In this document: one piece after another, positions 2,789-63,850 of the stretch
How positions within the stretch are numbered: position 1 is the first letter of the stretch
How the letters are laid out: each line of letters begins with the position of its first letter
Source of the DNA: a virus
Strand: one strand, 5' to 3'
Virus record (IMG/VR): IMGVR_UViG_3300036772_000425
Coordinates: 266,924 to 330,923 of that record
DNA length: 64,000 nt
Notes under the pieces: model-generated
Databases searched by the model: none
What the model saw: the letters and a program-made list of their open reading frames with translations, nothing else
Told to the model about the DNA's origin: nothing
Translations under genes and position numbers: made by a program

Positions 2789-3405
2789 GGTTCATCAGCG
2801 CTCCAGCCGTGCCCGCCCTTCTCCATCATGGTGGAGACGTAATCGGCGGTCATCACCCCGTAGACCAACGGTGATGACTTCAGGCAGTAGGGCTTGTTCG
2901 ATTCCAGGACGAAACCATCGTTCAACTTGACGGCCAACCATTCGTCCGGATCGAGCTGGATCCTGTAGTGCTGCAGGACGAAGACGCTCCTGTCGGGAGT
3001 TGTCATGAAGGGGATGTCGTTGTTGTACGCGTACACCTCGCCCCGCTTCTCACGCTTCCATGAATCGGGTTGGTCCACGTAGAAATCGTTCTCCTTTTCC
3101 TTCCCAGGCATGCCCACCTTGCCCAGGTCGTGGAACAGAGCACCGACGATCATGCTGTCCTTGCGCAAGTTCCAGCCGTACCCCTTGTTGAGCACGAGCA
3201 GGTTCTTCAGCACCCTGAGACTGTGATCGACCAACCCACCCGGAAAAGCACCGTGGTAATCTGCCCGAGCCGATGCGGGGCACAGGCACAGGCGCTCATC
3301 GAGTTCATCGAGCATCGTGATCACAGGTTCGGTTCGGGGCCCGAGCCTGCCGCACAGTGAGCGGAATTCGTTCCAGTTCTGCTCGATCTCTTCGGGTGTC
3401 AGCAT
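2785..3405 (-). CDS. HD-domain phosphohydrolase
   Basis: 206 aa with H...HD...D signature (HSLRVL ... ALFHDLGKVGMPGKE ... D). Stop overlaps the downstream start. Confidence 0.7.
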   Translation of the reverse strand: MLTPEEIEQNWNEFRSLCGRLGPRTEPVITMLDELDERLCLCPASARADYHGAFPGGLVDHSLRVLKNLLVLNKGYGWNLRKDSMIVGALFHDLGKVGMPGKEKENDFYVDQPDSWKREKRGEVYAYNNDIPFMTTPDRSVFVLQHYRIQLDPDEWLAVKLNDGFVLESNKPYCLKSSPLVYGVMTADYVSTMMEKGGHGWSADEP

Positions 3406-3443
3406 GGCAGGATCGTAACACGATCCGACCCATCGTTCAACGT

Positions 3444-4667
3444 TCAGACATCGTCAGCTTTGAGCATGAAACGTTGGACGTACCCCTTGATCCGTAGGGA
3501 GTTGATGGCACGGATCGCCGGCACCTCATCCTTGTGAGCATCGATCAGGATCGCATCGTGCAGAAGGAATATGGGCACCGACCTGGGTGCCACCGACGTA
3601 AGTTGGTCGATCACCTGCCTGAAACCGAGCAGGGTGATGTCCACCCCCGATGACTGACCGTAGTACGCAATGAACAGGTTGTCAAGCGGTTCATCGACCA
3701 CGATGGGTCGACCATGACGGTTCATGATCTTTCCGGTCTTCAGGAACTGCGCCTTGATCCGAGCGAGGAGCTCATGCGTGCTGAAGTACCGTTTGACACG
3801 TTGGACGAACTCGTCCAGTGCTGCTCCCTCGATCCCAAGCTGCACACCCAGGGCGCGTTTGCTGCTGCCGTAGAGCTCACTGATCACAGCGCCCTTGATG
3901 GCTTTGCGTTCGTAACCCAATTCTCGAGCGATCATCTGGTACAGGTCGGGTTCATCGCAGCGGCCACCGTGTTCGTACAGCAGGATCCTAGCCTCCAGTG
4001 CCGCAAAATCCAACGAGATCACCTGACCATCGTTCCCATGCCTGGACCTCAGGATCTTCCTGTGTTCACGTTTCAGCGTCAGGATCTGCGGACCGGTCGC
4101 GACCGTCAACCGTCCGGTCAAGGTCCTGAAACGATCGTACTCGACTGCGGGCATGCGACCCAACCTGTTCGGTTCAAAGCTTCGCAGGGCGGGCATGTTG
4201 CCCTCGCCCACGTCGATCAGCTCTTTCCAGAGGTGCTTGTCCACGTACCCGGGCCTCAGGGCCCGGATGACAGCGTTGCCGGGCACCCAGACGGTGGTGT
4301 AGTAATCGAACGGCAGGGTCCCGATGGTACCACCGATCGCGGTCACCAATTTTTTGGTGAAGTCGCGGTGTTCGTTCTCGGGCAGCACGAACCGCCACGG
4401 CACGTCAGTCGAACCGAGAGAACCGCTGAAGTGTTCCATCGACCTGATGAATTGCGGCGCGGGCATCGTCGGCAGCTCGATTCCAGCAAGCCTGTAGAGA
4501 GTGTCGAGACAGAACTCACTGTCCAGCTTGATCTGCCCACTGAGATGCCAGGCTCCGTCAGGCACCGATCCGACCCAGCTGTATCCAGCCTCAGAGACAG
4601 AGAGGTGCTTCGCGGTACCCAGGATCGAAGAATCAATGCAGAACCGTTGCACGATGCATCGTAACAC
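3444..4667 (-). CDS. Family A (Pol I-like) DNA polymerase, polymerase domain only (no exonuclease domain)
   Basis: 407 aa. RFRTLTGRLTVATGPQILT matches the Pol I TATGRLSSSDPNLQNIP. SLDFAALEARIL is motif A (DYSQIELR). RKAIKGAVISELYGSS is motif B (RxxAKxxxFGxxYG). FLLHDAILID is motif C (HDE with D retained). GTG start as called by the ORF track; a later ATG start is possible. Confidence 0.75.
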   Translation of the reverse strand: MLRCIVQRFCIDSSILGTAKHLSVSEAGYSWVGSVPDGAWHLSGQIKLDSEFCLDTLYRLAGIELPTMPAPQFIRSMEHFSGSLGSTDVPWRFVLPENEHRDFTKKLVTAIGGTIGTLPFDYYTTVWVPGNAVIRALRPGYVDKHLWKELIDVGEGNMPALRSFEPNRLGRMPAVEYDRFRTLTGRLTVATGPQILTLKREHRKILRSRHGNDGQVISLDFAALEARILLYEHGGRCDEPDLYQMIARELGYERKAIKGAVISELYGSSKRALGVQLGIEGAALDEFVQRVKRYFSTHELLARIKAQFLKTGKIMNRHGRPIVVDEPLDNLFIAYYGQSSGVDITLLGFRQVIDQLTSVAPRSVPIFLLHDAILIDAHKDEVPAIRAINSLRIKGYVQRFMLKADDV

Positions 4668-4689
4668 CCGTCAACCAACAACTACACGT

Positions 4690-7611
4690 TCAAGGAGCCG
4701 GATCCTTGGGTATGCTCGGATCCAGCTGGGTGATCTGGTCGACGATGTTGGGTGCGCCCTCGAAGACACCGTAACCATCAGCGTACCCGAACTGCCAGGA
4801 TGTCTCGAACTTTCCGGGCGAGAAAGCATGCGTGTAGTTGACCACGATGTAGAGGTTGTCCAGCGTGGTACCCGTCTGGAAATCGATGAAGTACTTCTGG
4901 GCGTTGGTCGCCAGTGGGTTGCCCAGGCTTGTCATGCTGAGTTGGGCTGGGATGACCCGCAACGGTAGGCCCATGGCGCCGGCGCCGTTCGGCGCGGCGG
5001 TATTCTTGATGGTCTGCGATCGGATCATCTGGACCGTCGACAGCAGGGGTTCAGCCTTGGAGGCGAGGTTCGCGCTGGAGATGGTCGAACCGTTCGAACC
5101 GAACCTGATTGTGGGTACCAGCTGGGCAAGGGCGTTCTTCAGCTGTTGAGCATCGGTGAACTGGCTGATCTGCACGCGCCCAGAAGCCTCGTCCTCCTGG
5201 TACTGCATGAAGGCGCTGAACAAGGGGTTGTCGCTGGGGCCCTTCGGCAGCAAGGATTTCGCGTAGTCGTTGGACGGCGTCGCGATGAACCCTGAGTTGA
5301 ACGGGTTCTTGAAGAACTGAGATGCAGCCCGGTGGGTGTTGGTCTGCTTGTCGTACACATGGATCCGCATGATCTTCCGGGTTGATTTGCCCTTCGCGTC
5401 CTTGATGGACACGCTGGTATCAGTCGTGGCAGAGTACGCAAGCACCTGGAGCACGTCGTTCTGCCCTGCATCGCTCACCCTTTCATGTGAGCATTCGATG
5501 TACATCTCTACCACCGGTTTCTTAAACGGTCCGTACTGCTTGTTGTAGGAAGCCAAACGGTTCTCGAACGCCTGTTCGTTATCCTTGCCCGACTTCACCT
5601 GCGCATCCTTGCCCTTGGCGTACGGTTCGTAGTACTGCCGCAGCCCGTATCCGGGCGCCCGGTTGTCCAGGAACTGTGCGTTGATGCACAGCCCCAAGAA
5701 ATCCTCCAGAGTGATCTTGTCGCCGCCGCGCTGCTTGGCAGTGTCGGTGAACTGGTCCATGAACTGCGGTAGGTCGATCGGGAACTCAGCGATGTTCTTC
5801 GAGCTGACGGGCCCACACGATTCATTGAGGCTGTAGAAGAAAACCTGCACCTCGTCCACCGTCTCCGGGATGCTGTTCGTGGCCCTCAAGGCGAAGACGC
5901 TGAACAGCTTCCCGAACGATACGACCCGATGCAGGGCGGTGTCCACCTTGGACGCAGGAGCTGAGTTCAGGCTGTCGCAGATCTGGGCCAGCTCGTTGTC
6001 GTCGGAATCGTACGGGGTGGACTTCGCAGACGAGGGCAAGAAAGGATCGAACCCTGTCTGCACCTCCTTGAACATCTTCTGAACCTGGTTCGCAGCACGG
6101 TGATCGTACTCCTCCTTCAGGGTGTACTTGGTCTTGTCCCGTTGGTCGGGCGTGTACAGCTGCTTGAGTGAATTGATCAGCCCGGACAGTGCCGTCTTGT
6201 CGACGGTCGCGTTCTTCTCCAGGTTCTTCTTCAGGGTGTCGATGTTTGTGTTGACATCGTTCGCCTTCATCTCTGGGAAGTTGCCGGTCTCGGCGGCGTC
6301 CAGGATCTGGAAGATCCGCATCTCCTTGTTCAGGCCCTCTGGCGGGTCCAGCTTCAGGCGCTGCCGGTAGTAGGAGATCTTCTCGATCAGGGCCTTGACC
6401 TGCCGCATCCTGAACGCTGAATCATCATCGTTATCAGTCACCTTCAGGTCACGCATCTCGGCCACCCCCTTGGTGAAGAGCTCGAGGTTGACGGTGACCT
6501 GACCCATCTGGTCGAAAGAGAAGTTCGAGTTGACGATGTGGTATGCCTCCCGCATCATCATGTTGTTGTTGATGTAGTCGAAGTACGGGTTCTGACCGGC
6601 TCGGGAAGGAGCGCGCCAACCGTACGTCATCCATATGGTGACGCCGGTGTAGACCCTCGGTCGAAGCAGGTCGCTGATCTCATTGAGACGGGACCTGTCA
6701 TGTATCTTGAGTGTCAGGTTGGCCTTCTTGTAGCAGAAGTAACCAGCACCTGTCGGCACAGAGTTGATGTTGACGTGCTCAAGGGAGGCGAACGGCCGGA
6801 ACGGATCGATCACGTCGGTGTAACGATCGCCGGCGGTGCCCACCGATTGGTTCGGCAATGGATTGACCAGGGTCTGCGGTGACGTGAACGCCTCCATGCC
6901 CATGTAATCCAGCTCACCCTGCTTCGCTCCGGTGCCATCCACGATGGGCAGGCGCCTGATGTCAGCGTCCGTCATCGCCTTGTTCGCACCGTCGAACGTC
7001 GTCGTATCAGCCGCTCCCAGGAGGAACTTGAGCAGACCACCGGTCTGCAGTTGGTCGGCTGGATCCCGACTGAACTGGAATTCAACCTGCATGTAGGGCA
7101 CCAGCTGCGACAGCACGGTGCTCGGCATGTTGTTCATGAACAGCTCTCCCCGCTTCGTGTTCCGGTTCGCCGGGTTGAAGAAGGGAGAACGGGTGATGAT
7201 CACCCCCATACCGAAACCATCACGCAGCTGGTAGTCGCCGCCGATGACCTCCTGCAGGCTGCTTACGTTGTACGGAGAACCGTCAGGGTTCGTAGCGATC
7301 TGATGCTTGGGCGTGTTCGACCCCACCGACACGATCTTCTCGTTCGTCCAGATGGTGAGGTAGTTCGACAAGTCCACACCTCCGAGGTCAGGGTTCCCCT
7401 TGATCTCGTTGATCTTGTTCTCGATGTCCTGCAGGTTGTAGACGCCCCGCCCGCTGTTCTCCAGGATGCTCATGAGCAGCTTGTACGGGTTGCTGTTGTC
7501 ACCGATCTTGTCGATCGAGCCGCCCAGGCTGGTGGCGACCGAACCGTTCATGTCGCTGGGCAGGAACATCGTGGAGATCCCGTCCAGCGTGGTGAAATCG
7601 CTGTCGGCCAT
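4690..7611 (-). CDS. Large virion structural protein (putative baseplate/tail component)
   Basis: 974 aa from MADSDFTTLDG (ATG placed 2 nt after the stop of the LysM gene). N/S/T/G-rich, no enzymatic motifs. Lies within the tail morphogenesis block directly after the protein-X homologue. Confidence 0.55.
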   Translation of the reverse strand: MADSDFTTLDGISTMFLPSDMNGSVATSLGGSIDKIGDNSNPYKLLMSILENSGRGVYNLQDIENKINEIKGNPDLGGVDLSNYLTIWTNEKIVSVGSNTPKHQIATNPDGSPYNVSSLQEVIGGDYQLRDGFGMGVIITRSPFFNPANRNTKRGELFMNNMPSTVLSQLVPYMQVEFQFSRDPADQLQTGGLLKFLLGAADTTTFDGANKAMTDADIRRLPIVDGTGAKQGELDYMGMEAFTSPQTLVNPLPNQSVGTAGDRYTDVIDPFRPFASLEHVNINSVPTGAGYFCYKKANLTLKIHDRSRLNEISDLLRPRVYTGVTIWMTYGWRAPSRAGQNPYFDYINNNMMMREAYHIVNSNFSFDQMGQVTVNLELFTKGVAEMRDLKVTDNDDDSAFRMRQVKALIEKISYYRQRLKLDPPEGLNKEMRIFQILDAAETGNFPEMKANDVNTNIDTLKKNLEKNATVDKTALSGLINSLKQLYTPDQRDKTKYTLKEEYDHRAANQVQKMFKEVQTGFDPFLPSSAKSTPYDSDDNELAQICDSLNSAPASKVDTALHRVVSFGKLFSVFALRATNSIPETVDEVQVFFYSLNESCGPVSSKNIAEFPIDLPQFMDQFTDTAKQRGGDKITLEDFLGLCINAQFLDNRAPGYGLRQYYEPYAKGKDAQVKSGKDNEQAFENRLASYNKQYGPFKKPVVEMYIECSHERVSDAGQNDVLQVLAYSATTDTSVSIKDAKGKSTRKIMRIHVYDKQTNTHRAASQFFKNPFNSGFIATPSNDYAKSLLPKGPSDNPLFSAFMQYQEDEASGRVQISQFTDAQQLKNALAQLVPTIRFGSNGSTISSANLASKAEPLLSTVQMIRSQTIKNTAAPNGAGAMGLPLRVIPAQLSMTSLGNPLATNAQKYFIDFQTGTTLDNLYIVVNYTHAFSPGKFETSWQFGYADGYGVFEGAPNIVDQITQLDPSIPKDPAP

Positions 7612-55780: not shown

Positions 55781-57411
55781 CCCATCAACCAGCTGAAGTC
55801 TCCCACGTCACGCAGGAACGGATTGGTCCGCTGGACCTGGGAGGCTTCCTTGGGCCGGAAGACGCTCTCGTTGTAGCCCCTGATGTTAGGGTTGATCAGC
55901 GGTTGAGCCTCGTTGATGTTCCCGGGCATCTGCTCGTTCCGATGAAGGCGGGTCGCTTCCAACATGGCGTACGCCATGAGCTTGGCCTGTTCGCTGATCC
56001 CTTCCCCACCTTCGATCAACCAGCAACCGATCGCCAGGCTCATGATCAGATCGTCGTGGCTATCCTTGCCCGCTGACGGTTTGTTTCCGTTCCACACGAA
56101 GGCCTGAAGTTGGTTGTACAGCCTCTCTGAGTACACGCTCAGTGCCTTGTTCCTGATCAGTTCTTCCAACTTTGCGAGGATCTGCACCCTTGATTTCTGG
56201 TTGGTCGGGAACCCAGGAAGCTCGTTGGGATCTGTTGGGATGTAGTTGAAAGGATCGCCCTTGTTCTTGTCGTAGTACAGCTTCTTGTACGAGTGCACAT
56301 CTCGAAGCTTGGTGTTGACGAAGTACCCGAAGGTGTTGTTCTCAGGCACAAGCAGGGCACCGTTGTACCGCTGTCCCCATTCTGCAAGCATGTCTGCAAG
56401 CTTCTCGGGTGGCACCTTGCCCATGTACTCGGCCACCACCTCGCACGTGCTAGCATCGATGACATGGAACGCAGAGTAGTCGGCAGCATCACCACGGGCA
56501 ACGTCAGCAGACACCACGTATGTGTGCCCTGCGTTCGGGTGTTCCCAGATCCAGATGTTCCTGTCGTGACCCTGCTTGTCGATCGGTTCCTGGATCTTTG
56601 TTCGAAGATCCTCAAGGTCGCTCGGTTGCAGGAAGGTATCACCTGATGATATGAAGTCGCAGAGGTACTCCTGGCTGGCCCGTTTCCGGGACAAGGACTT
56701 CGTTTCCTTGACGAACCAGGCATCATCGTGCTCGGGATGGACGGTCCAGGGCAGTTTGATGCAGTTGAAATCGTTCTGCCCGGCCTGTGCTTGGGTCCAC
56801 AGACGGTAGTACTGCCCACCGACACCCTTGGGCGTGGACAAAACGATGCAGTCTCCTCCGGTGGAGATGGTCGGAGCCAGACCTGTCCAGATCTCATCGA
56901 AATTGTGGATGATGGCAGCCTCATCGACCACCAGCAGCGACAGGGCTTCAGAACGACCAGCATCGTCAGAAGTTGGCACAGCAACGATCTGCGATCCGTT
57001 ATCGAACGAAACTGCCTGCTTCGTCGGTTCGAACTTGGTGAGCAAGAGCCAGGGCGGCAGGCCCAACAGGGCAACCTTGACCTTCTTGATCATGTTCATC
57101 GCCGTGGGCAGCTTGGTGGCGATGATCAGAATGTTCTTGTCCTTGTGAAAGATCGCCATCCAGGTGACGTACGCGGCGCACAGGGTGGACAGGCCCAGCT
57201 GCCGAGATTTCAGGATGATGTTGTGACGATTGTCCTTGAACTGCTGGACACAATCATCCTGGAATGGGTACGTTTCGAAGGGGATGGTGCCGCGCGTCGG
57301 GTGCTGGATCTTGACGTAGTTCTTGATGAAATAGACAGGATCTTTGCCGCACTTGATGATCTCTTCAACCTGCTGGGCACGGCTGAGGAGGTTGGTCGGT
57401 TTGTTCCGCAT
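55777..57411 (-). CDS. Terminase large subunit (gp17-like)
   Basis: 544 aa. Walker A ILKSRQLGLST, Walker B LLVVDEAA. C-terminal nuclease-domain acidic residues. ATG start. Confidence 0.85.
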   Translation of the reverse strand: MRNKPTNLLSRAQQVEEIIKCGKDPVYFIKNYVKIQHPTRGTIPFETYPFQDDCVQQFKDNRHNIILKSRQLGLSTLCAAYVTWMAIFHKDKNILIIATKLPTAMNMIKKVKVALLGLPPWLLLTKFEPTKQAVSFDNGSQIVAVPTSDDAGRSEALSLLVVDEAAIIHNFDEIWTGLAPTISTGGDCIVLSTPKGVGGQYYRLWTQAQAGQNDFNCIKLPWTVHPEHDDAWFVKETKSLSRKRASQEYLCDFISSGDTFLQPSDLEDLRTKIQEPIDKQGHDRNIWIWEHPNAGHTYVVSADVARGDAADYSAFHVIDASTCEVVAEYMGKVPPEKLADMLAEWGQRYNGALLVPENNTFGYFVNTKLRDVHSYKKLYYDKNKGDPFNYIPTDPNELPGFPTNQKSRVQILAKLEELIRNKALSVYSERLYNQLQAFVWNGNKPSAGKDSHDDLIMSLAIGCWLIEGGEGISEQAKLMAYAMLEATRLHRNEQMPGNINEAQPLINPNIRGYNESVFRPKEASQVQRTNPFLRDVGDFSWLMG

Positions 57412-57412
57412 C

Positions 57413-57793
57413 TCAACCGATCTCGTAGACGGTACGGCGGCGGAAGTACGCTGTGCGGCGCGGGTTGTGCACCGCGAAGTTGATGATCTCCAGGCTGTCC
57501 GTCGTGCTCACCTGCTTGGAGCTCAACGATTCGCCAGAAAGTTCACGGTAGTTGGCCTTGACCGCCTTCAAGACCTCGGCTGTGATTGATTCGGACTCCT
57601 CTGAGTACCGGCGCTTCATCTCAATCATCTGCCGCTCGGTACCGAAGTTGACCACGGCCTGGTAGGAGGCCAGCAATCGATCGGGACCGAGCATGCTCAG
57701 CTTGACAGAATAGCTGGCGGTTTTGGGGGTCGACGATCGACCCCACGTCGTGTCGATCGCCTGGCCCAGGGCGTTGAAATCAATGTCTGACAT
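57413..57793 (-). CDS. Candidate terminase small subunit (126 aa)
   Basis: Immediately upstream of, and translationally coupled to, TerL (1-nt gap). Preceded by CATAGTTAGACGTGGAGACACGTCAAC-ATG. No HTH recognised, so the call is positional only. Confidence 0.35.
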   Translation of the reverse strand: MSDIDFNALGQAIDTTWGRSSTPKTASYSVKLSMLGPDRLLASYQAVVNFGTERQMIEMKRRYSEESESITAEVLKAVKANYRELSGESLSSKQVSTTDSLEIINFAVHNPRRTAYFRRRTVYEIG

Positions 57794-57827
57794 GTTGACG
57801 TGTCTCCACGTCTAACTATGGCAGACA

Positions 57828-58130
57828 TCAATCGCCGTGTAGAACCAATGCTATGGGCGCTCGATCAACCTCTGCTCCGGCGATCTGCTCGGGGGTGGGT
57901 CTCCACCCGTTTGACCATGCTTCCCGACGCGGATGGGCCCACAGCATGGCGCAGCGGTAGCAACACCCAAATCCAAGGTACGATCTTTCATCATCGTCGG
58001 ACCTCATCAGGTAGGTGCACAGTGGGCAAGAAAGCGGAACAGGAGGTTCGGCATCGATGGGGACGATGACAGAAAAACCCTCGGGTCGATCCTCGATCAG
58101 TCTGCCGTTCAAGTAGGGTCGAAATGCCAT
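57828..58130 (-). CDS. Hypothetical Cys-rich protein (100 aa)
   Basis: CPLC...GCCYRC motif. Abuts the Rad50-like gene's stop. Confidence 0.4.
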   Translation of the reverse strand: MAFRPYLNGRLIEDRPEGFSVIVPIDAEPPVPLSCPLCTYLMRSDDDERSYLGFGCCYRCAMLWAHPRREAWSNGWRPTPEQIAGAEVDRAPIALVLHGD

Positions 58131-58131
58131 C

Positions 58132-60750
58132 TCAACCTTCGTTCACGACCCTGTCAGTGGGTTTGCTTTCGTTGAAAACAACGAGGGCATCGCTCTCGTT
58201 CTTCATCACCTCAATGACATGATCGGCCACATCTTTCACACCATCCACGTGCGTGATGACGATGATGGTTCGAAAGTACCGCTTCAATGAGATCAACAGA
58301 CGATTACATGCCTCGACGGAGGCTGGATCCAACGGACCGAAGCTCTCATCGATGATGAGCATGTCGGTCTTGGGCAGGGATGATACGTTGATCAGCGCAA
58401 CCCGAATCGCGATCGCAGCGATCGTCTTCTCCATCCCCGAACCCAGCTCGATGATCCGTCGACTGTCACCGTAGTCGATGTAGATCTCCATGGAATCGCT
58501 GTCGTCATCCTGCTCCAGTTCAACAGTGAAGTTAACGATCCCGCTCAGGATCTTAGCAACCTCTGAGTTGATGACTGGCAGTTGGGAGGAGACGATCATG
58601 CTCGGAACCCCCTTGCGGGAGAAAGCCTGAGCAATCAGTTCATGTACCTTCATCAGGTGCAGCACCTCGGCACGGCGATCTTTCTCAGAATCGAGCTTGA
58701 CCATGTCGGAGGTGTACCGCCCGACCGAGGCAGCAAGTTCCAATCGATCAGCGTTGAGGTCTTTGGTGAGCTGCTGGACTTCATTCAAGGAGTTCCGGAT
58801 GGTGACAGCCTCTACGTTTTCATCATTCTTGAGTGCCTCCTCCAGACCAGCCAGCAGCTTCTGAGCATCAACCAGCTTGGTCTGCTCTGGCTCCAGCCCC
58901 CGCTCCTTACGATCGATGGAAACGAGAAGTTGGCTCAGCTCGCCCTGCAGTGATACTCGACGAGCAGCCAACTTCTCGAGCTTGTCGATACGGCCTCGGA
59001 GATCTTCCTTCTTCAACTCTTCCAGCTGTTCGCCGGCCTTCTGCAGCTTACCGTGTGCCTTGGTTACCCGAACCCTCTGAGGATCGACCTTCTCACGTTG
59101 CTTGAATGCATCCTTGATGAACTTGCACCCAGGGAAGGTATCACCGCACGGAACCTCCTCAAGGATCTTGAGGGCGCGTTCCTTCTGTTTCAAGGAATCA
59201 GCTTCCCGTTCGTGCAGCAGGTTCAAGGTTTCGTAGGTCGACTCCAGGTTGATGAGAACCTCGAGCTTCTTCTTCAGTTCATCAAGATCGTTGGATCGGA
59301 ACACGCTGTCGAGCTTGGACAGTTTTTCCTCCCGATCAGAGCGATCTGCCTGAGCGTCTGAAAGCTCAGTCTCAAGATCGGAGACTGTCTGCTGCAGCGT
59401 CTCGATCCATTTTCGCTGTTGAACAACCTGACTTTGCGTGACGGGACTGAAATCCTTGAACACATCGAGCTGCCTACGCAGGTCATTCAACCGGAGGTTC
59501 GCGTCGTTGAGTTGGTGATCCTTTGTCTCGATCTGGGCACGCAGTTCTGCCAGCTTCTTGGCACAGTCATCGATCAGGGTACGGTAGTCCTTGTCGGGTA
59601 GGGCACGCAGTGAACCCTTGCCGAGGTTGACATCGACCTTTGCCTGCTCGAACATCCGGTCGAAGATGTCGAGATCGAGGAACCTAGACAGATCCTTGCG
59701 TCGTTTTGTGGTGCCCTGGTTGATGAACATCTTCACATCATCCTGAGCAGCGACGGAGGTCATCAGGCAATCCTCTGCGGTGCCGAGCAACCCCCTGATC
59801 ACCTTCTCGGTATCGTTCCGTTGTTCCCCGCCCAGATCCTCTGCCTCACCCTGCTCGTTGATCCTGAAAACGTTGAGGGAGGTACCTGCGTACACCTGCG
59901 CACGCTTGGTTTCGTACCTGACAGTCTGCCGCTCGATGACGTAGTTCACTCCTGATACGTTGACAATTGCCTTGGTGTAGCAGTGCGGATGCCGGACATT
60001 GATGACATGCAGGTTCTTGACGTTGCCACGATCGGTGGTGTTGAACAGGGCGTACATGGCAGTGCCGACGATGGACGATTTTCCGGCACGGTTCGGACCA
60101 AAGATCCCAACGATACCATGCAGCTGCTCGAAGTTGATGACATTGCCCGAACCGTACGTAAACGTATTGTCGAACTGCAGGTGCCTGAGCGACCACTTCG
60201 TGTTCCTGATGATCTCATCGTTACCGAGAGAGCTCTGCAGGTACACGCTCACCTGTTCACGGATCGCATCCCACTCTACGTCATCCAGCTTCAGATCGCG
60301 ATGATAGTCCCTCAACAGCCTGACCAACACCTCCGGATTTCGCAGGTCTTCCTTGGCGAGCGTTGCGCCACCGGTGGTGGTGATCAGATCCCGACGGATC
60401 TGTTGATCGTTCTTGAACGTAACCTCCGCCGCCATCATCTCGGATCGCAACCTCGACGTCAGCTGGATGACCTCCTTCTGCGTAAGGGTATCCTTGGTGC
60501 GGATCCGGAACCTAGCCCCCCGTGGGTGCGCCAGAGCGCCAGAGACAGTTGCATCGACAGAGCCCTTCCATTCGATGGTGATGAATGGACACGGGTTCGG
60601 CAGGTCGACGAAACGTACGTCAAAACTGTCACGATCCTGGATGTCCCAGAGCAGAAACCCGTGGGTGAGATCCTCTGCGTAGTTCTGCTGGACAGTGGAC
60701 CCAGGGTACCCTATCCAGGGTCGCTGTGCCTTGATCTTGATGGTGCTCAC
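58132..60750 (-). CDS. Mre11 capping-domain :: Rad50/SbcC (gp46-like) fusion ATPase
   Basis: Proposed GTG start overlapping the TGA of the upstream small ORF (GTGA). The first ~190 aa (STIKIKAQRPWIGYPGSTVQQNYAEDL...FITIEWKG) parallel the SbcD segment after motif V (VRYCGSPIPLSFDE...). They are followed by Rad50 Walker A GIVGIFGPNRAGKSS, a long coiled coil with hook-like PCGDTFPGC, signature LGSGMEKTIAAIAIRVAL and Walker B LIIDESFGPLD. The 46 N-terminal aa of ORF 58132..60885 look out-of-frame (G/R/P-rich). Confidence 0.75.
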   Translation of the reverse strand: MSTIKIKAQRPWIGYPGSTVQQNYAEDLTHGFLLWDIQDRDSFDVRFVDLPNPCPFITIEWKGSVDATVSGALAHPRGARFRIRTKDTLTQKEVIQLTSRLRSEMMAAEVTFKNDQQIRRDLITTTGGATLAKEDLRNPEVLVRLLRDYHRDLKLDDVEWDAIREQVSVYLQSSLGNDEIIRNTKWSLRHLQFDNTFTYGSGNVINFEQLHGIVGIFGPNRAGKSSIVGTAMYALFNTTDRGNVKNLHVINVRHPHCYTKAIVNVSGVNYVIERQTVRYETKRAQVYAGTSLNVFRINEQGEAEDLGGEQRNDTEKVIRGLLGTAEDCLMTSVAAQDDVKMFINQGTTKRRKDLSRFLDLDIFDRMFEQAKVDVNLGKGSLRALPDKDYRTLIDDCAKKLAELRAQIETKDHQLNDANLRLNDLRRQLDVFKDFSPVTQSQVVQQRKWIETLQQTVSDLETELSDAQADRSDREEKLSKLDSVFRSNDLDELKKKLEVLINLESTYETLNLLHEREADSLKQKERALKILEEVPCGDTFPGCKFIKDAFKQREKVDPQRVRVTKAHGKLQKAGEQLEELKKEDLRGRIDKLEKLAARRVSLQGELSQLLVSIDRKERGLEPEQTKLVDAQKLLAGLEEALKNDENVEAVTIRNSLNEVQQLTKDLNADRLELAASVGRYTSDMVKLDSEKDRRAEVLHLMKVHELIAQAFSRKGVPSMIVSSQLPVINSEVAKILSGIVNFTVELEQDDDSDSMEIYIDYGDSRRIIELGSGMEKTIAAIAIRVALINVSSLPKTDMLIIDESFGPLDPASVEACNRLLISLKRYFRTIIVITHVDGVKDVADHVIEVMKNESDALVVFNESKPTDRVVNEG

Positions 60751-61061
60751 TTCTTCACCTGACGGTAGTTCTCCCAGTAGAACTCGCGAGCCTGAGCGAT
60801 CGCTGTTCTCAGATCGGTCTGCCCGTTCTTCAGGATCTGCAGGACCATGTCTAGCGCCCTCTCCGGTTCCAGGTTCAACCAACAAACAAGCGCATGATCA
60901 TGATCGACTTCCTTGCTCGCAAGGGCGCCGATCTGATACCGTTCTTCAGCGATGAACCTGACAAGCTCAGGATCCTTGATGCAATCCTTGCAAAGTCCGG
61001 TCATACCGACTGACGGCCAACCCGTACAATCCTTGATGAAGCAACCCGGCCAACCCATCAA
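60747..61061 (-). CDS. Small zinc-finger ORF inserted within the mre11 coding region (104 aa)
   Basis: CFIKDC...CKDC Cys pairs. ATGA overlap with the Mre11-N stop and GTGA overlap with the downstream start. Flanked by a diverged ~60-nt duplication of mre11 sequence. Confidence 0.5.
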   Translation of the reverse strand: MMGWPGCFIKDCTGWPSVGMTGLCKDCIKDPELVRFIAEERYQIGALASKEVDHDHALVCWLNLEPERALDMVLQILKNGQTDLRTAIAQAREFYWENYRQVKK

Positions 61062-61711
61062 CCCTCCTCCCTGGACACGATCTCAGCTCCTGGGTACCTC
61101 GCAAGGTCTGACTCATCGATACTGATCGTTGATTCGCGGCCCGAGAGGTACTGCATCTTGTGGATGTCACCCAGGAAGCAGAAATCGAATTTCTTGAATG
61201 AATCCACCGTCAGGCCTTCCTCGATCAACCAATCCGTCAGAGCACCGAAGACTGGACCGTGGTAGCACGCGATGTTGACCTTGCCGGGGCTGGGTTCAAC
61301 GTTCTTCCAACCTTCCTCGTCGAAGAGGCTGAAAACACACCACGTGTAACCAGGAGCGAATTCGTACACCCCGCTCTTCTTGTACAGATGAACGTTTGGA
61401 TGTCCCAACGCGGCGACGATGGGTGACACGGCGTCCTGCCGCGACAGGTTGGTCAGGTTTCCATCATGGTTTCCCAGGATGAGGTGCACCTGTGCCACTG
61501 ACGCCATCTCCTGCAACCACCAGCTCATCTGCTGAATGTACTCAGGAGATAGGCCGGTCGTCTTGGTGTGGAAGATGTCCCCGCCCACGAAGACATGCTC
61601 AACGTGCAGTTCCCTGGTCCGGGACACGAAGGCCTGGAACACTTCTCTGTACTCGTTGTGCCTGCTCAGGCCGCGCCAGTGGACGTCTGCAATGTGTGCG
61701 ATCCTAAGCAT
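61058..61711 (-). CDS. Mre11/SbcD (gp47-like) nuclease, N-terminal phosphoesterase domain only
   Basis: 217 aa with all five calcineurin-like motifs: IADVHW (I), GGDIFH (II), LGNHD (III), CYHG (IV), FLGDIHKMQ (V; compare SbcD ALGHIHRAQ). Terminates about 30 aa after motif V. Confidence 0.8.
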   Translation of the reverse strand: MLRIAHIADVHWRGLSRHNEYREVFQAFVSRTRELHVEHVFVGGDIFHTKTTGLSPEYIQQMSWWLQEMASVAQVHLILGNHDGNLTNLSRQDAVSPIVAALGHPNVHLYKKSGVYEFAPGYTWCVFSLFDEEGWKNVEPSPGKVNIACYHGPVFGALTDWLIEEGLTVDSFKKFDFCFLGDIHKMQYLSGRESTISIDESDLARYPGAEIVSREEG

Positions 61712-62777
61712 CTGTCCTTCGGTTCACAGTACTGCGTTTGTTCGAACTGTACAAGAACGGTACTGTCGAACCCAGATGAACCTGAGCGGCACGTTCGAGC
61801 CGGGCCTTGATGTCCTGCATCCAATCGAACTTGGCCGCGTTCGATTTTGCGACCATGAAATCTGATTTCGACATAGCTCCCGGATCGTCGGGCACGTAGA
61901 CGATAGAAACATCGACCGCGTATTCCTCCAACCTCTTGGCGATCAGGGGAACCTTCGATTCCCGCATGTCAGCGTCCAACGCTAGGAAGACGGGGGTGGA
62001 GTTTGCGACGATGCAGTTGAAGAGCGCCGAACCGACGCGGAGGTCGCTGCCCAACAGGGGCACAGCATTGTCACCCGCCTTGAACATGTCGAAGACGCCC
62101 TCGCACAGGGTGACGCTGCGCTTCCAGTCTACATTGATCTCGTTGAAGATGACCTTATCACGGTCACCGTCTGGCGCATCGTACCTGGGTTTCCGTCCCC
62201 GATCGATGGCACGTGCAATGAAGTGGTTCACCTCCCCTTGGGCATCGAAGGATGGAATGATCGCCCTCCGCACCCACCGTGGGTCATTGCTGACACCAAT
62301 CCGGTACCGCCACAGGTCCCCCATGTCCAGTCCCCGGTCGACGAGCAGGTAGCGCTTGACAGCAAGCGCGTCCGGATCTGTTGTTCCGACGCACAGCAAC
62401 CTGAAATCATCGGGCAACCTCAACCTCTCCTTGACATGCTCAACATCATCAAAGAACCGGCGCGCCTTCATGGCATCGGGCAGCACCCGATCCCTGAACT
62501 CCAGCAGCAGTTCTCGTCCGAAATGATCAGCAAGGATGGTCCACAGTGTCCTGGACCTGTACCCGCATGTCCAGCAGTGGCACGCGAGGCAAACCTGCTC
62601 CTCCTCGCCCTTCTTGTTGACGATCGTCTCATCCGTCAGGATCGACAGCTTTAGCTTCATCCTGTCCGTGGGAGCGCAGATCGGGCACCTCACGTCCACG
62701 TTCCGACCATCACGTGAGGTGCGAAACTGACCGAACACCCGATTGATGAAATTCAGCTTGTCGGACAGGCTGAGCAC
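61704..62777 (-). CDS. DNA primase (gp61/DnaG-like: zinc ribbon + TOPRIM)
   Basis: 357 aa. N-terminal CPICAP...CLACHCWTCG zinc-binding domain. Central acidic TOPRIM-like region. Overlaps the mre11 start by 8 nt. Confidence 0.75.
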   Translation of the reverse strand: MLSLSDKLNFINRVFGQFRTSRDGRNVDVRCPICAPTDRMKLKLSILTDETIVNKKGEEEQVCLACHCWTCGYRSRTLWTILADHFGRELLLEFRDRVLPDAMKARRFFDDVEHVKERLRLPDDFRLLCVGTTDPDALAVKRYLLVDRGLDMGDLWRYRIGVSNDPRWVRRAIIPSFDAQGEVNHFIARAIDRGRKPRYDAPDGDRDKVIFNEINVDWKRSVTLCEGVFDMFKAGDNAVPLLGSDLRVGSALFNCIVANSTPVFLALDADMRESKVPLIAKRLEEYAVDVSIVYVPDDPGAMSKSDFMVAKSNAAKFDWMQDIKARLERAAQVHLGSTVPFLYSSNKRSTVNRRTDA

Positions 62778-62789
62778 ACCACCAAGGTA

Positions 62790-63410
62790 CTACGGAGCCT
62801 TGTTCTTGGACTTGCGTACCTTCGGAGCGGGAACGGAGGCAGTACCCTGGACGACAGCGGCACGGGCGATCACGTAGGCATCGGTGGCGTCCCTGGACCA
62901 GTCAACCTCGGCGCCGTTCTTCTTCCTGTCCCACACAACATGCTTCAGGTCGTGTTCCTTCATGTGCTTGAAGACCTGTTCCTTCTGGGACATGCCCGCC
63001 GCGGCTGTCCTCTGCATCTTCATCCCACACAGCTTACGAGCATGTGCAGATCCGATGTACTCAGGTTCGCAGCCTAGCTGCGATCGGGCGATGTAGCTGA
63101 CGATCCCATTGAAACGCATCAGCTGGGTGATGGTCTGCGCGCTCGACATCCCTGTCCGGAACCCCATCAAGGGTTCCTCCACGACCACCCGACCGATGCG
63201 CCGGGAACCTAGGGCTGCGTGGTCACCGTCCAGTTCTCGCAACCGAACTGCGACCGCATCGGCCTTCTCCCACAGGGTACCGCAGCCCTTGAACTCGATC
63301 CTGTCGAGCAGGAGGATCTGGGAACCCTGCTCGTCTGGCATCGCCTCAGAATCGACCACACAGATCCCTGTCACCGAGGTGCTGACGTCCAAACCAAGAA
63401 CGATGGTCAT
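62790..63410 (-). CDS. RuvC-family Holliday junction resolvase
   Basis: Start at MTIVLGLDVSTSVTGICVVD (compare E. coli RuvC ILGIDPGSRVTGYGV). Acidic catalytic residues EEP and DATDAYVIA (compare RuvC DAADALAIA). Confidence 0.65.
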   Translation of the reverse strand: MTIVLGLDVSTSVTGICVVDSEAMPDEQGSQILLLDRIEFKGCGTLWEKADAVAVRLRELDGDHAALGSRRIGRVVVEEPLMGFRTGMSSAQTITQLMRFNGIVSYIARSQLGCEPEYIGSAHARKLCGMKMQRTAAAGMSQKEQVFKHMKEHDLKHVVWDRKKNGAEVDWSRDATDAYVIARAAVVQGTASVPAPKVRKSKNKAP

Positions 63411-63448: not shown

Positions 63449-63850
63449 TCAGAGCAACCGTAGACCTTTCAGTTCCTTTTCCGTGATAATCACCAGGGTG
63501 GCACCGTTGGTCCTGCACCATCCTTCTGCGGCCGCCAGTTTCTTTTTCACGATGGTCTGGACCAAACGCTTCGAGGGCTTGATCTCGACGAGGACCAGGG
63601 TCCCATCCACGTGGGTGATCAGGATGTCAGGGTAGTACGTCCGGACCCTCCCTGTCCGAGAGTTGCTCACGTACGGGATCTTCACTGATTCGTAGGAGTA
63701 GCTGGCCACGCTAGGGTCAGCGTCGAGGTACTGCATGTACTTCAGCTCCCAACCCGACCGGTAGCTGCATTCACCGACCAGCTTCGGCGAAGTGTGTTCA
63801 CCGGTGTGGTAGCGTTTCTTGCGCCGCCTTTTCTTCTTGGGGATCAGCAT
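63449..63850 (-). CDS. PD-(D/E)xK-type nuclease-fold protein (hypothetical, 133 aa)
   Basis: Basic N-terminus KKKRRRKKR, then YYPDILITHVDGTLVLVEIKPSK resembling a D...(D/E)xK catalytic motif. Confidence 0.4.
   Translation of the reverse strand: MLIPKKKRRRKKRYHTGEHTSPKLVGECSYRSGWELKYMQYLDADPSVASYSYESVKIPYVSNSRTGRVRTYYPDILITHVDGTLVLVEIKPSKRLVQTIVKKKLAAAEGWCRTNGATLVIITEKELKGLRLL

Follow-up and report, generated by a model that had tools for sequence, protein, structure and literature searches.

Genes in pieces at the sites of free-standing homing endonuclease genes are a known class in phages, and the closest precedent for the locus described here is nrdA-a/mobE/nrdA-b of Aeromonas phage Aeh1 (Friedrich et al. 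2007; Crona et al. 2010, PMC3045599). There, an essential gene of phage DNA metabolism that is contiguous in relatives is split within its conserved catalytic region at the site of the endonuclease gene, the genes overlap, the pieces are translated separately, and NrdA-a and NrdA-b carry unique terminal tails of opposite charge that are essential for activity (PMC3045599). Endonuclease-associated fragmentation of a replication or repair gene is also described for the T4 topoisomerase genes 39/60 with mobA and for gene 43 of Aeromonas phages 25 and 44RR; in these systems junction sequence travels with the endonuclease gene, and in gene 43 the endonuclease gene may have invaded a gene that was already split (PMC2988022). 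We analyzed a 64,000-nt stretch of viral DNA (positions 266,924 to 330,923 of IMG/VR record IMGVR_UViG_3300036772_000425; hereafter the window), in which three consecutive open reading frames (ORFs), ORF1, ORF2 and ORF3, occupy the place of the DNA repair enzyme Mre11-Rad50. We find that the window probably holds an endonuclease-associated gene in pieces, a member of this known class, in a newly found family of single-chain Mre11-Rad50 proteins. On balance we think it quite probable that ORF1 and ORF3 are the pieces of one such single-chain gene, inherited as a split at a homing site, and that ORF2 entered the split as a secondary insertion.

The parallel with Aeh1 is close: in the window, too, relatives have in one piece an essential DNA-metabolism gene that is here divided in its conserved catalytic region, at a position that is a homing-endonuclease site in relatives, the genes overlap, both products carry unique terminal tails of opposite charge, and the pieces are predicted to be translated separately. 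The window departs from Aeh1 in that the gene is a single-chain Mre11-Rad50 rather than NrdA, in that the charges are the other way round (acidic in the C-terminal tail, basic in the N-terminal head), in that the occupant of the split is not a recognizable endonuclease, and in that tail function is here a prediction; moreover, the split in this family is widespread (more than 120 distinct sequences), usually empty, and associated with at least three endonuclease families. Unlike T4 39/60, the window has no 50-nt bypass element and its insert is a translated ORF; where an untranslated spacer would lie, its junction encodes protein tails. With the canonical pairs, T4 gp47/gp46, E. coli SbcD/SbcC and T. 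maritima Mre11-Rad50 (PDB 3QG5, 6S6V), the window shares the phosphoesterase motifs, the YPGS strand, the capping domain and the helix-loop-helix of Mre11, together with the ABC-ATPase head, coiled coil and cysteine hook of Rad50. It differs from them in that the gene boundary lies inside Mre11 rather than between Mre11 and Rad50, the C-terminus of Mre11 is joined covalently to the N-terminus of Rad50, motif V reads GDIH, and the hook is of the form CX6C rather than CXXC. The features of the locus are as follows.

61058..61711, minus strand: ORF1, N-terminal fragment of Mre11 with the nuclease core, 217 amino acids (aa); identified by Pfam and PHROG matches and motif positions, more than 120 distinct homologues measuring 214-233 aa.
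61061..61135, minus strand: acidic C-terminal tail of ORF1, aa 193-217, ESTISIDESDLARYPGAEIVSREEG; conserved across 126 distinct sequences.
60747..61058, minus strand: ORF2, 103 aa, a four-cysteine N-terminal knuckle and three helices; identified by GC content by codon position, homologues and an AlphaFold2 (AF2) model.
60750-58132, minus strand: ORF3, 872 aa, GTG start at 60750; the C-terminal part of Mre11 and Rad50 in one frame.
60712..60750, minus strand: N-terminal basic head of ORF3, MSTIKIKAQRPWI, 5' of the canonical YPGS strand; identified from the heads of split relatives.
60190..60711, minus strand: C-terminal part of Mre11, ORF3 aa 14-187, with the YPGSTVQQNYAE strand, capping domain and Rad50-binding helices.
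58132..60189, minus strand: Rad50/SbcC part, ORF3 aa 188-872; identified by phrog_77 and motif positions.

ORF2 fills the exact gap between the ORF1 stop and the ORF3 start. Its overlap with ORF1 is TGATG (stop 61060-61058, ATG 61058-61056, one base in common) rather than the ATGA given in the initial annotation, and from this ATG it encodes 103 rather than 104 aa, all of its homologues starting MGWP. A GGGAGGAGGG run lies directly upstream of the ORF2 ATG. The GTGA overlap between ORF2 and ORF3 is as first annotated, with AGGTGA 4 nt upstream of the ORF3 GTG. Over positions 59558-63211 of the window (3,654 nt), an independent Logan assembly shows 100% identity and yields the same gene calls of 217, 103 and 872 aa, which reproduces the three-ORF arrangement that had been claimed and excludes an assembly error. 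That the locus is an assembly artifact or a decaying pseudogene is a suggestion we give practically no weight: it could appeal to the single metagenomic source of the window and to a nonsense codon in ORF3 of one relative, L006, but against this stand the identity of the independent assembly over 3.65 kb, the intactness of all catalytic motifs, a codon-position GC content like that of neighboring genes, and hundreds of relatives with the same architecture.

ORF1 contains all five phosphoesterase motifs, I to V (DVH at aa 9, GD at 44, GNHD at 80, YHG at 150 and GDIH at 181), and matches Pfam Metallophos at 44.1 bits (cut-off 21.5) and the SbcD-like phrog_100 at 6e-15. Its stop falls 33 aa past the histidine of motif V, in keeping with the original description of a complete set of Mre11/SbcD motifs followed by a stop about 30 aa later. 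Motif V (61160-61171, minus strand, aa 181-184) is GDIH and not GHxH, with Asp replacing the first metal-binding His across the whole phage family. NCBIfam SbcD/Mre11 equivalog profiles score 25-29 bits, under cut-offs of 77-600, and scores lie far under the NCBIfam SbcC/SbcD cut-offs; the Mre11 of the window is a distant member of the superfamily rather than an SbcD/Mre11 equivalog.

The rest of Mre11 is found in ORF3, which begins STIKIKAQRPWIGYPGSTVQ and has no stop before its Rad50 part. A profile of 38 fused relatives aligns through its positions 178-351 to T. maritima Mre11 (3qg5_C) 203-367 and through positions 170-363 to E. coli SbcD 207-399, with GDIH...YPGStiQQNYGE of the profile lining up with GHIH...YPGSLIRIDFGEE of T. 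maritima. This alignment establishes homology between the first ~187 aa of ORF3 and the part of Mre11/SbcD that follows motif V; such homology had been proposed for the ORF3 N-terminus from the letters of the DNA, and the profile search shows that its ~190 aa are indeed related to Mre11. An AF2 model of ORF1 joined to ORF3 residues 1-200 agrees, with a predicted local distance difference test (pLDDT) score of 84.5: the top 31 hits of a Foldseek search of the PDB are all Mre11/SbcD chains, and template modeling (TM) scores against full-length SbcD/Mre11 are 0.52-0.64. We conclude from alignment and model that ORF1 and ORF3(1-200) together make up a complete Mre11.

The remainder of ORF3 is a complete Rad50. 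Residues 188-852 match the SbcC-like phrog_77 at 1.8e-47, and the ATPase motifs are all present on the minus strand: Walker A at aa 218-225 (60076-60099; expected near aa 215 in the initial annotation), the ABC signature SGME at aa 771 (58429-58440), Walker B at aa 797 (58345-58362) and the H-loop at aa 832 (58249-58257). Scores of ORF3 against Pfam SMC_N and AAA_23 are under the gathering thresholds. The hook, CGDTFPGC, lies at 59125-59148 (minus strand, ORF3 aa 535-542); the canonical CXXC zinc hook of Rad50/SbcC is absent from ORF3 of the window, which has CX6C spacing instead, and the family hook VPCGDxFPxCKFIKD is conserved with this spacing in split and fused members alike, while the distant members Mel-JY01 and L002 (LR756508) have a CXXC hook. 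An Mre11 encoded in two pieces, with the C-terminal piece covalently fused to a full Rad50, as proposed in the initial annotation, is borne out.

That fusion is a property of the whole family. Microcystis phage Mel-JY01 encodes an uninterrupted protein of 1066 aa (WWT39521.1), which bears the annotation 'AAA domain containing protein'. It is colinear with ORF1 plus ORF3, including the Mre11 C-terminal part of ORF3, and its gene adjoins a primase-like gene, as in the window. A scan of IMG/VR returned more than 570 relatives. In 78 loci both the Mre11 and the Rad50 parts are visible; 66 of these have one uninterrupted Mre11-Rad50 frame and 12 are split. A typical member has ~1050 aa: its N-terminal part is Mre11, with nuclease, capping and Rad50-binding domains, and Rad50 makes up the rest. 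GenBank holds few members overall: the fused gene is present in Mel-JY01 and in the 735-kb megaphages LR756501 and LR756503, the others being LR756508, which is split, and distant Tenacibaculum phages, and nucleotide BLAST of the region against GenBank phages gives no match. Mel-JY01 and LR756501/LR756503 share with the window the family and the place beside the primase-like gene but are unsplit, lack tail and head, and are only ~30% identical. Because 66 of 78 related loci and Mel-JY01 encode a single chain, the fusion of the Mre11 C-terminal part to Rad50 is, on this comparison, ancestral to the family; the earlier idea that it arose together with the split does not hold. For natural Mre11-Rad50 fusions or a split gp47, the searched literature yields only tagged constructs and general reviews. 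Big aquatic phages thus have a large family of Mre11-Rad50 proteins that are single chains by nature, and it is described nowhere in that literature.

The cut, found in a single sub-lineage of the family to which the window belongs, lies ~8 residues past GDIH of motif V, just before the conserved YPGS strand, at the boundary of the nuclease and capping domains. The nearest relatives (numbered here with the prefix L) are split at the same residue without an insert, the ORF1 stop overlapping the ORF3 start; these are L083, whose ORF1 is 84% identical to that of the window, L003, L084/L086 and L005-L010. Among 458 homologues of ORF1, the best 120 all fall within 201-233 aa and have the conserved tail, for which 126 distinct sequences give the consensus E[LI]x[IV]DExDLxKYPGAE[VI][IL]E; its conservation reads as purifying selection on a translated peptide. 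The mean net charge of 135 tails is -4.6, and the ORF3 heads of split relatives, KKIKIKxKKPWI[GA] followed by YPGS, carry a net charge of +4 to +6. Fused sister genes lack both the acidic tail and the basic head and have in place of the tail a loop of 15-20 aa, e.g., QMQHLGYRDCLNGKKKPWIS. Since the closest relatives are split at the same site without an insert, the split is inherited and older than ORF2.

These relatives bear directly on the model of the initial annotation, in which insertion of the zinc-finger ORF2 split an intact mre11, duplicated ~60 nt of target and created the fusion in the same rearrangement. It is true that ORF2 sits exactly at the break, that the tail and head of the window share STI.I and YPG, and that endonuclease genes split genes in T4-like phages (PMC2988022, PMC3045599). 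However, more than 120 relatives share this split and tail, the nearest of them without ORF2, the fusion is family-wide, ORF2 lacks any nuclease signature and has its homologues in arrays of small ORFs elsewhere, and the duplication does not rise above chance. We hold this model to be very unlikely and, in our view, already refuted by the insert-free split relatives.

The duplication had been put at about 60% identity over ~60 nt. In register, with a gap of one codon, tail and head of the window agree at 26 of 60 nt (43%), and their best local nucleotide alignment covers 10 nt over the YPG codons, a score reached by 31% of codon shuffles and by 49% of other ORF3 windows. A hidden Markov model from 126 tails, run against heads and fused loops, matches only over YPG, with non-significant scores, and of the two elements shared in the window only YPG is shared family-wide; a target duplication is thus statistically undetectable. 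What tail and head have in common is a beta-like alternating stretch with the same spacing, followed by YPG[A/S], and an ancient duplication of a hairpin at the junction is possible.

ORF2 itself is a real gene. Its GC content by codon position (0.57/0.38/0.66) is like that of neighboring genes, and nine remote homologues of about 100-120 aa conserve MGWPxC..C..WPxxG.TGxC..CI.DP; these lie in arrays of small phage ORFs, away from Mre11 junctions, and ORF2 is absent from the closest relatives. An AF2 model (pLDDT 87.8) shows a four-cysteine knuckle and then three helices, for which neither PDB nor BFVD offers a fold match. Searches of Pfam, PHROG and NCBIfam give no match and no nuclease family, and neither these nor the model reveal a GIY-YIG, HNH, LAGLIDADG, PD-(D/E)xK or EDxHD domain; in IMG/VR the alignment of the family was too variable, and a scan with the N-terminal motif gave no confirmed match. 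We also considered ORF2 as a remnant of the endonuclease genes found at the junction in relatives, with which it has no similarity by blastp or tblastn. Its flanks reuse both junction types, TGATGGGT upstream as in L083 and GTGAGCA downstream as in L086. From its sequence and model, ORF2 is best described as a member of a small four-cysteine phage protein family, not a nuclease, and we treat it as a presumptive secondary cargo insertion.

Homing endonucleases are nonetheless involved at this site, as the initial annotation had supposed, although in relatives of the window and not through ORF2. Homing-endonuclease-like genes of at least three families occur at exactly this junction: a free-standing gene of this kind at the split, as in Aeh1 but absent from the window, is present in L085, L020, L011 and L002, and L016 has a remnant. 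The clearest case is L085: upstream of the junction its sequence and that of L086/L084 agree at 100% identity for 4,649 nt, and from ~60 nt downstream they are identical again for more than 3 kb. The only differences are a 581-nt insert and ~22 substitutions at the beginning of ORF3, within its first 58 nt; just two of them alter an amino acid, K to R in both cases. The 187-aa ORF of the insert contains a NUMOD3 motif and has a match in phrog_314 'homing endonuclease', and we read the insert and the clustered silent changes as a probable endonuclease gene beside its recoded target site. The junction ORFs of L020 and L011 are Vsr/DUF559-like and match phrog_3339/559, and the junction gap of L002 holds a 305-aa cysteine-rich TnsA-like ORF that matches phrog_1271. 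L002 (LR756508.1, from a very distant jumbo phage of 484 kb; 3355-7580) is split at the same residue despite ~30% identity, and its ORF1 tail is acidic and related to that of the window (EEMVVEEDELEKY...), which suggests that the junction module crosses large phylogenetic distances.

A second comparison speaks to movement of the split state. L016 and L020 have tails that are 93% and heads that are 100% identical in nucleotide sequence, with identity falling to 40-60% within ~150 nt of the junction; their backbones differ, and each is nearest to fused sister genes. Because the two share the junction while their flanks diverge and group with fused genes, the split state (tail, endonuclease gene, head and ~100 nt) has moved horizontally between divergent backbones. 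Of the L020 endonuclease gene, the 76-nt spacer of L016 retains only the final 19 codons, with 89% identity, so that loss of an endonuclease gene leaves a clean split gene. Taken together, these junction sequences indicate that the cut site is a homing site.

A different order of events would have an ordinary mutation, such as a small duplication or a frameshift, break the fused gene once by creating a stop and a restart; the pieces would then have evolved tails, and the short junction, flanked by conserved coding regions, would later have offered unrelated endonuclease genes and ORF2 an easy place to insert. Most split loci are empty at the junction, three unrelated endonuclease families at one site fit secondary colonization, the same question has been raised for the split gene 43 of Aeromonas phages 25 and 44RR (PMC2988022), and from RD to YPG the tail spans the same distance as the corresponding stretch of fused relatives with a long loop, for instance RDVSISKNRNPWISYPGS. 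Yet split L016 and L020 nest among fused backbones with a junction that is 93-100% identical, and L016 keeps its endonuclease gene remnant; the split state is therefore importable together with an endonuclease gene, and we rate a prior fission of this kind as a tentative alternative, less probable than a split inherited at a homing site.

One might also suppose that the single chain is restored after all, by RNA splicing, intein trans-splicing, ribosomal frameshifting or bypass. The bypass of T4 gene 60 and phage group I introns are precedents, and ORF1 and ORF3 overlap in different frames in insert-free relatives. But the frame offset from ORF1 to ORF3 differs among these relatives (-1 in L003, L007 and L008; +1 in L009 and L010), which are still split without any insert; the whole 311-nt insert of the window is a conserved coding gene, ORF2; conservation of the tail as a translated peptide extends right to the stop codon; and an Rfam scan of 57000-63000 finds no group I intron or other RNA at E<=1. 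We regard restoration of the chain as extremely improbable, and the splicing or bypass option raised initially is unsupported. A split intein was rejected separately, as tail (~25 aa) and head (~13 aa) are far too short and the terminal Cys/Ser and His-Asn residues are missing.

The likely product is instead the other option that had been offered, an enzyme of two polypeptides. In the mechanism we propose, ORF1 and ORF3 would be translated separately from one message, their translation coupled by overlapping stop and start codons, and the exact fit of ORF2 would keep this coupling on both sides. The pieces would then come together without a covalent bond to form a working Mre11, tethered to Rad50 from the outset, and the oppositely charged, beta-patterned tail and head may serve as assembly adaptors, by analogy with Aeh1 NrdA-a/NrdA-b. 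A scan for promoters and terminators finds none on the coding strand within the three-gene block, which is weak evidence that ORF1, ORF2 and ORF3 form one operon.

Several points weigh against this inherited, reassembling gene in pieces. Reassembly and the role of tail and head are deduced from sequence patterns and by analogy. The AF2 model of the concatenated pieces does not discriminate which YPG strand fills the core slot; in that run MAFFT placed every fused homologue on the tail, leaving the head without alignment cover. The endonuclease assignments come from profile matches, several of them under Pfam cut-offs, and cleavage is predicted. Two orders of events are compatible with an endonuclease gene at the split, which may have caused it or have colonized an existing one. 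Finally, ORF2 may not be neutral cargo at all but have a function connected with the complex.

A more speculative possibility, which we consider doubtful, is that the acidic tail with its stop, the endonuclease gene, and the start with the basic head constitute a self-contained mobile gene-splitting cassette that brings its own reassembly adaptors and so turns an intact single-chain gene into a functioning two-piece one without fitness cost, ORF2 being replacement cargo. If this were true, ORF2, co-translated with the two halves, could be a new zinc-binding partner or regulator of Mre11-Rad50.

Read as an inherited gene in pieces, the locus and its relatives provide a second and far more populous natural example beside the Aeh1 ribonucleotide reductase, with hundreds of sequence variants to study, in which an essential enzyme is broken up at the site of a selfish endonuclease and the charged tails appear to neutralize the damage. 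The position of the cut, at the nuclease/capping boundary, bears on communication between the Mre11 capping domain and Rad50, and the family offers ready-made split and fused constructs for structural work. For annotation, a 217-aa 'SbcD' beside an 872-aa 'SbcC' in such phages should not be taken for a canonical gene pair.

Among the relatives, ORF3 of L006 carries a TCA-to-TAA stop (4547-4549) exactly at the boundary between the C-terminal part of Mre11 and Rad50. L006 and L005 show 7 differences over 7 kb, this stop among them; it may reflect an error of sequencing, mark a defective variant or split the gene further.

The source contig of the window measures 340 kb, and we conclude that it belongs to a large phage; upstream of the three ORFs lie primase-like and RuvC-like genes, and downstream a terminase and a portal gene. 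Directly 3' of rad50 and overlapping its stop is a cysteine-rich ORF of 100 aa (57828-58130, minus strand; CPLC...CCYRC) that has no family match, and in relatives a 101-aa ORF is called at this position. The start of ORF1 shares 8 nt with the primase-like gene (61704-61711), an observation that also takes in 62777-62790. The gene order TnsA-like, RuvC-like, primase-like, mre11N, ORF2, mre11C-rad50, two small ORFs and terminase matches that of relatives L084-L086. Just upstream of the RuvC-like and primase-like genes sits the 133-aa ORF of a TnsA-like PD-(D/E)xK endonuclease (63449-63850, minus strand; Pfam 54 bits), which some PHROG families label 'head closure'; it is kept at the same position in L084-L086 and so looks resident rather than mobile.

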